DNA of 64,000 nucleotides from Eledone cirrhosa (Eukaryota), in assembly GCA_964016885.1 (NCBI GenBank), contig OZ024747.1:82832001-82896000 (forward strand), given 5' to 3'. The notes beneath the pieces were generated by a model, which saw only the letters and a program-made list of their open reading frames with translations, did not search any database and was not told where the DNA came from. Both the position numbers and the translations under genes were made by a program. Below, in pieces: positions 12,645-42,958 of this stretch (positions are counted from its first letter, which is position 1; each line of letters starts with the position of its first letter).

Positions 12645-12758
12645 TAACAAAGTGGGTGTGATAAGATACCAGGTGGACCATAACGCACCAGAGTATTCAA
12701 TACTTAGGGTAATAGAGTGGGTAATATGAAAAGAGTCAGGACCCCTGACTCTTTTCAT
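12645..12758 (-). mobile_element. family B element, 5' end at predicted cleavage site, with short inverted arm
   Basis: ggtggaccataacgcacc..tacttagggtaatagagtgggtaat..ggacccc, then inverted tgactcttttcat; lies between (TA)n and (GATA)n. Confidence 0.8.
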
Positions 12759-12877
12759 AGATAGATAGATAGATGACTAGATAGATAGATAGATAGATAG
12801 ATAGATAGATAGATAGATAGATAGATAGATAGATAGATAGATAGATGACACTAGATAGATAGATAGATGACTAGATA
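12758..12877. repeat. (GATA)n tetranucleotide repeat
   Basis: Direct reading. Confidence 0.95.
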
Positions 12878-12970
12878 AGTAATTTTATTGAACGCATAGA
12901 AGATACAATGCCTCACATTTCCTGATCGGTGATCGGTTTCATCTCAATGGGGATCCATTTTACTAATATA

Positions 12971-13047
12971 TAGGTGTCCCCAAAGAATATATACACACTT
13001 CAACAGCATTCCAATAAATATATGTATACATTTTGGGGGACACCCTG
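12971..13047. mobile_element. Tc1/mariner-type MITE
   Basis: TIRs ggtgtccccaaa / tttgggggacaccctg; interior shared with the copy at 31001-31103. Confidence 0.7.
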
Positions 13048-14166
13048 TTTATGTGTGTTTATCACACGCAAACATACATACATACAGAGAGAGAGAAGGA
13101 GAGAGAGAGAGAGAGAGCGAGAAAGAGAGAGAGAGAGAGAGAGAGAGAGAGAGAGAGAGAGAGAGAGAGAGAGAGAGCGAGAGAGAGAGAGAGAGAGAGA
13201 GAGACGGACAGATAAACATAAACATTCCCCGAAATATACAGAGAAGTAGACTTAGCAATACACACACGTGTATTTGTGTTTGTTCTGATATTGTGATGAC
13301 CAGTCAACGCTGATTAAAGCTATGTCCTGCAGCGTATACAATATATTGTGTACAATATATAGGCTATATGATATTATATATCGAATATTACAGCTAATCG
13401 CCATTGAAGGATGAACCTAATTAGGAAATGTCAAGCAAATATTATCTATTTATCACATTTGGGTCATATATAAATGAATATATGCATACATACATACACA
13501 TATTTACATACAGACAAACATACATACATACACGCATACATACACACCCACATACATACGTGTATGTTTAAGTGCATATATAGACATATATATGAGCGCG
13601 CGCGTGTGTGTGTGAGTGCGTATATAAATATATGAATTTATGTATGTGGTGGGTGTAATGTGTTGTAGTAAGAGTTAGCACGAATAAAATTCGAACAATA
13701 TTACATATAACAAAGATAAGGTTTTTTATTTGTTGTTGTTGTTGTTGTTGTTGTTGTTGTTGTTGTATACACTAACGGGAAGTTTCGTATTACAGAAAGA
13801 ATTCTGTAAAAATTGTCCGATATGAAGAAAACCAATAAAGAAATAATGATCTCAAATCTCTACAGTCGTTATTTAAATAATTTTGGATGTGTTTAAATAA
13901 CAGCATTAGGAGCATTAGGCTGTGTGGCGAAGAAGTTTGTTTCATAACACCACTTTGGCTAAGTACGTGTTTCTTACCTTACTAAAAGATTCGGGTTAAC
14001 CAATGTCTTGGTGAATGAAATTTAAGATAGATTTTCAAGATAGATTGAAACTACAGGAGAGAGAGAGAGAGCGAGAGAGAGAGAGGGGGGGGGGGGGGGC
14101 CTGATCAGTGTCAATCTTGGGTGTTCCAACTATTCGAAGAATAAAATGGTCTACTCAAGTCTAATG

Positions 14167-14395
14167 TTAAACCGTTCATTGCCATATTTCTAATGAGGCA
14201 TATATTGCTTATGATTTTCAAATAATCAAGAATTTGGAAGGATTTAATAATATAAATGAGTTTCTCATTGTTAAGCTGGTGGGTTTTTACATAAAATTAT
14301 GATGGAAGGTTTCTAGATAAATATAAATACTTTAAAACAAATAGTTTAACATCGTAAAACCAAGGATGGTTTCAGGTTGCAATCAAAAGGGTTAT
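14167..14395. mobile_element. degenerate piggyBac-like MITE
   Basis: ttaa-accgtt... at left and aaaggg-ttat at right (decayed TTAA-CCCTTT termini); AT-rich interior. Confidence 0.35.
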
Positions 14396-14599
14396 CATAA
14401 GGGTTATTATTAAGTATAACCTTAATTTAATTGTTGGGTGGAATCGGTGTGACACCGCGTGAAAGTGCTGGATGTTTTAATTATAAATACATTCCATGCG
14501 ACTGCAAGTTTAGGCACGAGGTTGTTGTTATACACTGTCATGGTGTTTACTGCCATGTTGGTAGTAAATGGTTAGAGGAAGGAGTCTTGTTATTTTTTA

Positions 14600-39243: not shown

Positions 39244-39700
39244 TCTATCTATCTCTCTCTCTCTCTATCTCTATCTCTCTCTCTCTCTCGCTATTTCTCT
39301 CTCTCTCTTTCTCTCTCTATCTCTATCTCTCTCTCTCTCTCGCTATTTCTCTCTCTCTCTCTCTCTTTCTCTCTCTATCTCTATCTCTCTCTCTCTCTCG
39401 CTATTTCTCTCTCTCTCTCTCTCTCTCTCTCTCTCTCTCTCTCTCTCTATCTCTCTCTCACTCTTTTTTTCTCGCTATTTCTCTTTCTCTCTCTCTCTCT
39501 CTCTCTCTCTCTCTCTCTCTCTCTCTCTCTCTCTCTCTATGTATATATATATATCGCTACCTCTCTCGTTATCTCTCTCTCTCTTTCTCCCACTATCTCT
39601 CTCTCTATGTATATATATATATATATAGATAGATAGAGATAGCGAGAGAGGTAGCGAGATATATATATACCTCTCTCGCTATCTCTATCTTTCTCTTTAT
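39244..39700. repeat. (CT)n-rich tract with cgctatttct spacers and a local inversion
   Basis: Recurrent ctcgctatttctct; gatagcgagagaggtagcg (39638-39657) is inverted relative to its neighbours. Confidence 0.9.
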
Positions 39701-40409
39701 CTCTCTTTCTTCTCACTCACTCTCTTCTCATTTTTGTTATCCTTCCATCTTACTCTCTTTTATTTTCCTTCTTTTTATATATTGGTGTTCTCTCTCACGC
39801 ACTTTCAGCGTTTCTTTAGTCTCTCTCTCTCTCTCTCTCTCTGTCTCTCTCTGTCACTCTCTCTCACTCTATCTATCTATCTAACAAACTAGCTATCTCT
39901 ATCTCTCGCTGTGGCTATCTTTCCTTCACACTCTTTCTTTCTCTCTATTTTTCTATTCGTGTCATCTCTCACACACTTTGATCATTCTCTCTTTCCTACT
40001 TTATTTACCAACCTACCTCTCTCTGCTATTCCCCTACCTCTCTCTCTCTTTCTCTCTATCTCTCTGCTATTTCTCACCTTCAGAACTCAATCTTTCTACT
40101 TTCCTTCTATTCTATCTCACCCTCTCTACGTCCATATCCTTCATTCATTCTCATTTCTTTTTCAATCGGTGATATCCCTTGTCCAAATTTAGTTATATGT
40201 GTGTGTGTGTGTGTGTGTGTGTGTGTGTGTGTGTGTGTGTGTGTACACAGGAAAGACCAGGGTGCTGGTGCTATTGCGTCCCCTGCAAAAAAAAAAAACT
40301 GTCTCCCTCATCCCCAAGAAATATTAATGAGGTACAGTGTAAAAATATAGTTCGGTATCTTAATACCTTTCAATTTATATATATATATATATACATGTAT
40401 GTGTGTATG

Positions 40410-40750
40410 TGTGTGTGTGTCTGTATTTATGTAGGTATAAATATATATTTGTGTATATATATATATATATATATACATATATATATATATATATGTGTGT
40501 GTGTGTGTGTCTGTATTTATGTATGTATAAATATATATTTGTGTATATATATATATATATATATATATATATATATATATATATATACATATATATATGT
40601 GTGTGTGTGTGTCTGTATTTATGTATGTATAAATATATATTTGTGTATATATATATATATATATATACACATATATATATATATATATATATATATGTGT
40701 GTGTGTGTGTGTGTGTCTGTATTTATGTATGTATAAATATATATTTGTAT
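40410..40750. repeat. compound ~90-110-bp tandem unit x4 built from microsatellites
   Basis: gtgtctgtatttatgtatgtataaatatatatttgt recurs at ~40417, 40507, 40609, 40713. Confidence 0.9.
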
Positions 40751-41821
40751 ATATATATATATATATATATATATATATATATATATATATATATATATAT
40801 ATATATATATATATATATATATATATATATATATACATATATATATGTGTGTGTGGCGTTCTTTCTTCAACCGTTTCATTCACTTTCGACATCTTTACAG
40901 CTGTCACCAGTTTTATTATCACCACACCCGTTACCTCCACTCAGCCCACCACCTTATTCGATCCCGGAACCGACTGTTTACTGTATAACAACCGACATCT
41001 ATGTTAACCCTTTTCTTCACTTTCATTCAGGTACGCACAAACACTCTCTATCTCTCCCAGTCTCTGTGTGTGTGTATATATATATGTGTGTGCATATATA
41101 TATATATATATATGTGTGTGTGAGTGTGTGTGTGTGTGTATAGTTTATCGGTGTAAATGATGCTATATTGATAGCTCCTTCATACTCTTTATTTTTGCTG
41201 TATATACATAAATATATATATATGTGTATAATATAATATATATATATGTGTATAATATAATATATATATATATGTGTATAATATAATATATATGTATGCA
41301 TGTGTACGGACATACACTCATATATACATACACCAAAAATGTTTTGCGGGTGCATGCAACTATTTTGCACACTTGCGTAACAGTACAGTTTTGTTGAAGC
41401 ACTTGTATGTTTATGTATGTCTGTATGTCTGCGTGTGTGTGTGCGTGTATGTGTGTGTATGTATGCGTGTATGTGTATATGTGTGTGTGTGTGTGTCTGT
41501 GTACGCCGGGTGTTTGTATGGTAGTATTAGTCGTAGTAATAATTGTTTCTACTTTTGGCACAAGGCCAGCAATTACCCAGTGTATTACTGGTACTTTATT
41601 TTATCGACACCCGTAAGGATGAAAGGCAAAGTCAACCTCGGCGGGATTAATGGTGGTATATACGGGGTCTATAGTTCATACATGAACTTTAAGGAACGGA
41701 ATCGGTATCGCTGTATGAAGATTCGGTAGAAGCGCTCCAGCATGGCCTTTCAGCGTTGTGACGAGAACAAAACTAAATGCAAAAAAAAGAGTAAACCTTT
41801 AAAAAAAAGATATGCCTAGCT

Positions 41822-42520
41822 TCAGATTCAAACACAAGCTCACACACACACACAAAGGCACACACACACACACACACACACAAAGGCACACACACACACA
41901 CACACACACACACACACACACACACACACACACACACACACACAAAGGCACACACACACACACACACACAAAGGCACACACACACAAGCACATTCACATA
42001 AATTCCCATACAGACTCACACATACCTGCACTTTCAAACACAAGCTCACATACACACACACAAAGGCGTACACACACAAGCACATTCACATACATTCCCA
42101 TACAGACTCACACACACACATACACACAAAGGCACACACACACAAGCACATTCACATACAAGCTCACACACCCACAAAAAAAGCACATTCACATAGATGC
42201 ACATTCAAACACAAGCTCACACACACACACACACACAAAGGCGTACACACACAAGCACATTCACATATATGCACATTCAAACACAAGCTCTCACACACAC
42301 ACACACACACACAAAGGCACACACATACAAGCACATTCACATAGATGCACATTCAAACACAAGCTCACACACACACACACACACACAAAGGCGTACACAC
42401 ACAAGCACATTCACATACAAGCTCACACACCCACAACAAAAAGCACATTCACATACATGCACATTCAAACACAAGCTCACACACACACATACACACAAAG
42501 GCGTACACACACGAACATAG
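41822..42520. repeat. (CA)-based complex minisatellite
   Basis: Modules ttcaaacacaagctc, caaaggc(g/a)tacac and caagcacattcacata interleaved with (CA)n. Confidence 0.9.
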
Positions 42521-42859
42521 ACACTCACACAACCGCGCGCACACACAGACAACGCTGAAAAACAGAGAAGATTGTACGTTAGCTGTAGCAACGCGTAAGT
42601 TGAGTTCCTACATTAACAAGCACAGTTACTTGGAGGGCTGTAGAGAGAAAATAAATACATAGAATGCATAGAGGTGCAGATGCGATTAGGTAGCATGCGT
42701 AGGTGGGTGTGAATATTTGAATATATATATATATATATATATATATGTAGGGAGTTAGTTATATCCTAGAAACGATCGTAAAATGATGAATTTTTTAATA
42801 TAAGGAACTGTTTCTTTGTTTTTATTCATTATTTTTATTAATTTATATATATATATATA

Positions 42860-42958
42860 TAACGAAGGAAATGTGGTACGGAACCAGATGGACCATAACG
42901 CACCAAAGTACTCAATACTTAGGGTAGTAGAGTGGGTAATAGGAACGAGTAGGACCCC
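42860..42958 (-). mobile_element. family B element ending exactly at the predicted cleavage site
   Basis: aacgaaggaaatgtgg...aggaacgagtaggacccc, then unrelated sequence. Confidence 0.82.

Follow-up and report, generated by a model that had tools for sequence, protein, structure and literature searches.

The stretch of DNA considered here (the window: 64,000 nucleotides of the Eledone cirrhosa assembly GCA_964016885.1, contig OZ024747.1, positions 82,832,001 to 82,896,000) contains six copies of a repeat, family B, which is, as judged from the sequence of its coding copies, the end (pseudo-long terminal repeat, pLTR, plus an 80-nt tail) of a Hydra-type Penelope-like retrotransposon. Positions in the element are numbered in the element sense, +1 being the first G after the GTC triplet of a predicted hammerhead cleavage site and −1 the C before it. 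The 3′ ends of the copies lie on (TA)n and are fixed at +17 or +97, both of which are followed by TAT in the element, and the usual insertion consists of one +17-ended and one +97-ended arm joined head to head, with the tail present at one end only. Two of the copies, ending at 12745 and 42958, are quite probably Penelope-like mini-insertions that were reverse-transcribed from RNA cut in the cell by its own hammerhead.

The first of these is composed of a tailed arm (12647..12745, minus strand; an older, CTGACTC-type subfamily), which ends on (TA)n, and an inverted short arm (12746..12759, plus strand), which starts at about +6 to +8, with both arms located downstream of the predicted cut. The tailed arm opens with GGGGTC and overlaps its inverted partner by 2 bp (GG), both as described in an earlier note on this DNA; because of this overlap its start can be placed anywhere from +1 to +3. 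The second is a tailed arm (42862..42958, minus strand; CTACTCG-type subfamily), which starts at +1 directly after ATAT, likewise with GGGGTC as described, and has no family B partner arm. Joined to its 5′ end is an inverted pair of pieces (42959..43094) of another abundant, (TA)n-associated repeat, the adjoining piece being 5′-truncated. This palindrome comes from a repeat with two fixed 3′ ends, and it possibly forms a two-family head-to-head insertion together with family B. Given these junction problems, each of the two copies taken singly is slightly weaker evidence of a cut than the family as a whole.

The motif GAAACGGC..AGCCGTC^GGGGTC, from which the cut had originally been predicted, is found in the 33471 copy, reading along the minus strand (GAAAC at 33513, +1 at 33490). 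The short arm of this copy (33474..33531, minus strand) runs from −41, the A of its AGTCC start, via GAAA, stem III and GTC^G to +17, and is followed by a tail-only arm (33533..33610, plus strand) starting near +20. The variants of the motif are also present as reported: the two-armed 9873 copy (9876..10029, plus strand) has GGAAC in place of GAAAC, an inverted short arm reaching about −8 and a tailed arm starting at about −31, with the uncut site at 9932|9933; the two-armed 22126 copy (22128..22317, minus strand) has GGGATC in one arm and GTT in the other, its tailed arm (minus strand, +1 = 22227) reaching about −41 with a 4-nt overlap and its short arm (plus strand) starting at about −33; and the older two-armed 48690 copy (48690..48873) has a short arm (plus strand, +1 = 48856) that reaches about −41 and a tailed arm on the minus strand (+1 = 48785). 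Among the 11 arms of the six copies, two start at +1 and three reach about −41 (read by eye), the latter being the tailed arm of the 22126 copy and the short arms of the 33471 and 48690 copies; the share at +1 (2/11) exceeds the genome-wide rate of ~1–2%. The 5′ half of the hammerhead core (CTGANGA) is, as had been observed, retained by none of the family B copies in the window.

The element behind family B and its predicted hammerhead

A 27-nt word of the family B tail has 29,261 exact matches in the 3.0-Gb genome that was searched. Walking upstream led to copy L211, in which the same pLTR stands before and after an open reading frame (ORF), 3,558 nt apart, as expected of a tandem pLTR-ORF-pLTR arrangement. 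Copy L213 holds an open frame of 790 amino acids, and L211 a 574-amino-acid piece, with reverse transcriptase (RT) and GIY-YIG-type endonuclease motifs (FDIxxYY, Y(R/H)DD, IYQC..YIG); these assignments are made by motif, searches of Pfam and PDB with the ORF having returned no match. Endonuclease-containing (EN+) Penelope-like elements (PLEs) of the Hydra clade, as described in the available text of PMC8557442, likewise have a single ORF with RT and GIY-YIG-type endonuclease, and the features of that clade are found here: the DKT motif, the CxCX5C linker (intact in L211, its last C mutated in L213), and CxxC and CxH next to the conserved residues E and N. Also shared with that clade are partial tandems, a one-sided tail, a hammerhead in the pLTR, an adjoining inverted 5′-truncated copy and a (TA)n target; the partial tandem, the inverted copy and the one-sided tail are traits of EN+ elements. 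Family B differs from the clade in having a unit of ~3.56 kb, as compared with generally <3 kb, a tail of 80 nt, as compared with 30–40, and RWR at the position of the RWK motif (residue 87 of L213). Because of this last difference, and because the clade was assigned by motifs, the label is limited to “Hydra-type”, which after the motif check replaced an initial assignment to the Neptune clade.

Two other identities were considered and rejected. A DNA transposon or foldback element with long terminal inverted repeats had been suggested by the 30 best matches, in which one arm reads GGAA and the other GAAA, a difference that is likely an effect of how the query selects its matches; the ORF rules this identity out. 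A non-LTR (long terminal repeat) retrozyme, defined as non-coding short tandem units that each carry a hammerhead (available text of bioRxiv 10.64898/2026.07.22.740005), is ruled out as well, the upstream sequence running into the 3′ untranslated region and ORF of a coding element. Beside the full copies of family B lie fragments of ORFs (L213:8116-9579 and L211:1052-1957) that have similar motifs and belong to other PLE families, which are richer in AT. Some insertions consist of merely 17 nt (+1 to +17) between (TA)n runs (L345, L377, L378, L384, L403 and others) and are easily overlooked in repeat annotation.

Full copies bear out the expectation that a stem I and core half would stand upstream of the cut, although it reads TACCCC rather than the anticipated GACCCC and its core is not always CTGANGA. 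In the 12745-type subfamily TACCCC is accompanied by CUGAGGA, UUGAGGA or UUGAUAA, and the 42958-type subfamilies have either UUGANAA or CUGAGAA, the latter with a mismatch. In a set of 105 distinct long copies, the core, found ~85 nt upstream of the cut after ACCCC, reads CTGAGAA in 47, TTGAGAA in 6, TTGATAA in 5 and TTGAGGA in 5, with CTGAGGA and others making up the remainder; the query was biased toward CTGAGAA, and 20 copies were left unparsed by the script. Stem III, which had been described as long, has 5–6 bp, and its last pair holds in just 14 of 34 aligned copies. A search for literal CTGANGA within 40 nt upstream of GAAAC had given 37 genome matches with heterogeneous upstream sequence, which were dismissed as flank coincidences, the real core lying ~60 nt upstream of GAAA.

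Across 34 chosen copies the three predicted helices are paired in 88% of 748 cells, compared with 23–45% in slid controls, and two-sided changes occur in 30 cells, a value reached by 0 of 500 shuffles, with double-sided changes in stem II between subfamilies; the number of pairs with a two-sided change is not above shuffles (132/500), and all of these scores are inflated by the relatedness of the copies. The 3–8 pair is standard in 24 of the 34 aligned copies (U-A 10, U-G 9, C-G 5). Unaided minimum-free-energy folding gives the three-way junction in 2 of 9 copies. It has to be noted that stems II and III have AGCCGTC as a direct repeat in their 3′ strands (L214:7808-7848 and other long copies), so that RNA starting at −41 would fold into an alternative hairpin that buries GAAA; the same repeat also drives frequent 23-nt duplications.

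Junctions and linkers at the predicted cut

When the 5′ ends of family B copies are plotted, a sharp peak stands at GTC^G, as the earlier note had anticipated for self-cleaved templates, but it is local and minor, making up ~1–2% of unselected arms, compared with 65% at −47..−34. Among 198 arms unselected for their 5′ end (taken outside the window, and with starts beyond +2 outside what the set could count), 129 start at −47..−34 with a mode at −41, 21 start beyond −48 and seven score +1, these seven being three independent true starts, one partner of a selected locus and three near-intact copies. Of tail matches that could be scored (97 of the first 100 listed), 56 start at −50..−31, 9 beyond −100 and 4 (5 by eye) at −1..+3. 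Filtering for junctions between −4 and +17 yielded 1,854 matches, and 11 of the 100 listed are strictly +1 (hand count), which corresponds to ~1% of tail copies.

The peak itself is seen most clearly at junctions with eight A/T bases upstream in the interval −9..+5, of which there are 358; among the 100 listed, 44 are placed at +1 by the script. Direct AT-flanked junctions, 56 among the same 100, fall at +1 in 26 cases (five of them linker, jump or tandem cases), at −3 in 6, at +4 in 6, at −2 in 3 and at −1 in none, and after three probable local duplicates are dropped the peak stands at 23 vs 6 (Poisson P ~1e-7). With a fixed-gap design, 25 of 100 listed matches out of 395 are at +1 (hand count, including two one-mismatch rows); the script agreed with hand scoring on 30 fixed-gap rows, except for the one-mismatch rows. 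Inverted short arms in the same listing stop at +1 in 12 rows and at −1..−4 in none (hand count).

These distributions bear on the possibility that no cleavage takes place and that the RT merely stalls, either at the stem III base or in the G run, GG microhomology repair then setting the junction at +1. Stem III does start two bases upstream of +1, and a GG overlap is frequent at inverted junctions, that of the 12745 copy included. The direct junctions to AT runs, however, offer no G microhomology and peak at +1 all the same, and a stall leaves unexplained why A-rich linkers stand between intact halves, why they are confined to molecules with full cores and why partner arms stop at +1, all of which is described below; such a stall is thus a very improbable source of the +1 class.

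The linkers were found by a search of the whole genome for the two halves of the site lying 2–30 nt apart, which gave 84 rows, all of them listed. In 17 of these a non-templated, A/T-rich linker stands exactly between GTC and GGGG; they represent 16 independent insertions, and all the linker sequences are different. The remaining rows reflect tandem duplications or slips in the G run, and a row with a 2-nt AG (L422) was excluded from the count, its partner arm crossing the site with a G-to-A change. In a control across 16 bonds (100 listed of 127 matches, hand count), 15 linkers lie at the cut, the position of one being ambiguous by one base, and a single linker lies at any of the 15 remaining bonds (P ~1e-15). 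A complete core is present upstream in 15 of the 16 events (TTGAGAA in 10, TTGATAA in 2, CTGAGAA in 3), whereas only 21 of the 198 unselected arms even reach the core region (P ~3e-14). Read in the RNA sense, the linkers contain A 149, T 59, G 19 and C 7 times, with T first in 10 of 18 rows, a composition resembling that of U- and then A/G-tailing of RNA 3′ ends by host terminal transferases.

The partner arm is visible in 8 of the 16 events, and since five of these stop at +1, one at +2 and one at +6, while one has the same linker, both arms were seemingly templated by a single RNA broken at the GTC^G bond. Another arrangement is found in L337, which starts at +1, runs ~185 nt into the ORF, passes through an AT-rich linker and then begins anew at +1. 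L368 resembles it, and both fit end-to-end jumps or circular templates. Taken together, the +1 peak, the linkers at the scissile bond and the partner arms ending at +1 support the original proposal that self-cleaved RNA served as the template, and make it very probable that hammerhead RNA is cut at GTC^G inside cells, so far as genomic junctions can tell.

Could the bond instead be cut by a protein nuclease, such as a cleavage/polyadenylation factor or the protein that the element encodes? The linkers are A-rich like tails, three linker events carry the mismatched C3.A8 core, and the hammerhead of PAc, a Poseidon element of Anolis, cut only in the presence of protein (available text of PMC11167929). 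Yet the break falls at the exact bond predicted for a hammerhead, with the full core in cis in 15/16 events, the core and stems covary, and in PAc cutting was abolished by core mutants and not by nuclease mutants (PMC11167929), which leaves little chance that a nuclease is responsible. Even less probable is an origin in DNA after insertion, through hairpin-tip deletion of palindromes, CpG decay or CpG repair patches. The copies are indeed palindromes in microsatellites, tandem duplications are common around the site, and T precedes +1 in 22 of the 26 direct junctions, as a deaminated C would give. Decay cannot supply these 22 junctions, because junctions that retain the intact C are rare (three direct ones at −2, none at −1); moreover, other CpG bonds among the 16 tested are free of linkers in the 100 of 127 matches listed, and DNA repair would not stop partner arms 0.2–1.8 kb away at +1.

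Several observations nonetheless weigh against self-cleavage as the origin of the two window copies, or limit its reach. The +1 class is just ~1–2% of arms, and copies running from the tail to the ORF cross the site uncut in 39 of 58 cases, with 1 starting at +1 (hand count); from the rarity of +1 starts and these crossings it follows that most templates passed the site uncut. A full copy had no hammerhead match in Rfam even with an E-value limit of 10, and there was none among 150 listed of 196 matches in the window, possibly owing to the length of loop II. The commonest core in the biased sample is the C3.A8-mismatched CUGAGAA (47/105), yet it is carried by 3 of the 15 linker events with a core. 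Such a core is expected to cut poorly. The difference in +1 share between U3-A8 and C3.A8 subfamilies is not firm (Fisher P 0.01–0.11 by hand, 0.08 by script), and the link of the +1 share to core type is suggestive at most. The edge of the 42958 copy, which abuts the truncated piece of the other repeat, could for that reason have been shaped or trimmed by a later insertion. Finally, Anolis PAc did not need cleavage for insertion in vitro, and not one RNA-seq read had either of its ends at the cleavage site (Frangieh et al. 2024, PMC11167929, available text). The large, little-diverged subfamily L061-L090, with its mismatched C3.A8 core, still gives a few linker events (L411, L414, L417); no mention of a C3.A8 core was found in the available part of PMC3088659.

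The upstream boundary and a proposed route to insertion

The dominant boundary at −47..−34 lies inside loop II, and it is reasonably likely to be a transcription start. TYAGT (TTAGT or TCAGT) holds the modal −41 A in 30 of 34 long copies, and this A is preceded by G in 11 of 18 arms, and by G in 41 vs A in 8 of 100 listed rows (hand count); 3,768 matches were obtained with a junction design centred near −41 that used another anchor. A G excess before the start is the outcome expected from copying of the cap. A TATTTAAA-like stretch lies ~30 nt upstream of the start region in some younger subfamilies only. The older subfamily is without such a TATA-like box, which speaks against a transcription start, as do the spread of 5′ ends across 14 positions, the possibility that many of the preceding Gs derive from the inverted arm, and the presence of a lone extra G in just 1 of ~20 direct microsatellite junctions (by eye).

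The same scatter would suit a structure- or protein-dependent stop of the RT on a longer RNA, an explanation that is rather unlikely without being negligible. A GC-rich hairpin ends just upstream of −45 in the older subfamily, and in D. virilis the start is located upstream of an intron whose end maps to helix I, and hence upstream of the whole ribozyme (available texts of PMC2377424 and PMC4209133). A stop of this kind is harder to reconcile with a boundary position that is common to subfamilies with different loop II sequences and lies after, not before, the stem II strand, and with a modal A that sits within the conserved TYAGT and is preceded by an excess of G. In either case CTGANGA is missing from the short copies because most of them start inside loop II, and mostly not because of the cut.

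If transcription does start inside loop II (at about −45 to −41), the 5′ pLTR of the transcript would be without the CUGA/UUGA half and therefore unable to cut in cis, and copying from +17 or +97 to the RNA's 5′ end would give the common 60- and 140-nt arms. The whole ribozyme would be present only in the downstream pLTR of a read-through RNA, where a cut would leave a 3′ piece with both priming sites. The RT may then run off at +1, giving the class to which the 12745 and 42958 copies belong, or it may jump across to the upstream piece, landing at its 3′ end after a host terminal transferase has added U/A/G there, giving the linker class. More speculative, and somewhat doubtful, is the idea that the ribozyme is split by the promoter on purpose, such that the capped 5′ end stays uncut and the downstream hammerhead creates the coding RNA's 3′ end, to which the host then adds a tail. 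Were this so, the element would rely on the ribozyme both to form 3′ ends and to switch its RNA between two uses, as message when cut and as full-length template when uncut; the RT would also bridge the cut end-to-end, with RNA that is occasionally re-joined or circularised (L418, L337).

Known systems and other repeats of the window

PLE hammerheads and U3-A8 cores are already known from the literature (PMC4209133, available text). Those hammerheads, among them the one with a U3-A8 variant in Schistosoma Cercyon, have the same type I topology, 5-bp stem I, long stem II, palindromic loop III and U3-A8/C3-G8 covariation as family B. The latter differs in its stem III of 5–6 bp, with which it could act as a monomer, in its ~35-nt loop II, seemingly with the RNA start within it, in its large C3.A8 subfamily and in the genomic scars at the cut. 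Cervera and de la Pena 2014 (PMC4209133) stated that there was no in vivo evidence for PLE hammerheads, and Craig et al. 2021 (PMC8557442) called the function of hammerhead ribozymes in PLEs unclear, with no junction evidence of cutting found in the available text of that paper. PAc (PMC11167929, available text) has the same two internal RT starts bounding the tail, an AT-rich target, priming on both strands and a ribozyme upstream of the priming sites; unlike in PAc, a minority of the genomic copies of family B records the cut. In the R2 element (Eickbush et al. 2013, PMC3774820, available text) the cut position of the HDV-like (hepatitis delta virus-like) ribozyme is likewise mirrored in genomic 5′ junctions, together with non-templated bases and template jumps. 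R2, however, represents another ribozyme and element class, in which the cut sets the normal 5′ end, whereas that of family B is seen in 1–2% of arms, and the linkers of family B, unlike those of R2, have the look of tails borne by the upstream piece of RNA.

A literature search that took in few subscription papers and no supplements found nothing on PLE copies starting at a hammerhead cut or carrying linkers at it. In family B, inherited DNA would keep, within single insertions, a record of the cut bond to the base, of what probably became of the upstream product (U/A/G tailing) and of how the RT probably behaved (run-off or jump). The cut RNA appears as a minor template, and a reason is suggested for most copies having half a ribozyme. 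The linker search amounts to one pattern query, and it can be applied to any family of PLEs, retrozymes or candidate ribozymes to test for activity in the germ line.

The window also contains other repeats with hammerhead-like motifs. At 4060-4130 and 45860-45930, another repeat family has a compact motif of this kind (CTGAAGA or CTGAGGA, a short stem, and GAAAC AATTG TT), partly in inverted pairs, and a third such repeat (CTGATGA ... GAAACAGTTCT) adjoins microsatellites at 33290-33345 and 25040-25095 (minus strand). At 52780-52830, a CTGATGA motif is followed by a short arm that ends on (TA)n, the last bases of which are similar to +1..+17 of family B. An eight-unit, 40-bp tandem array at 31240-31560 has CTGACGA in each unit, and a long 18-bp tandem array (~175 registers) occupies 60120-63700. 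Lastly, CCTTACGGGGTCGATAAA is common to seven copies of another short repeat family, at 4658, 14915, 15241, 19813, 36403, 57692 and 58358.

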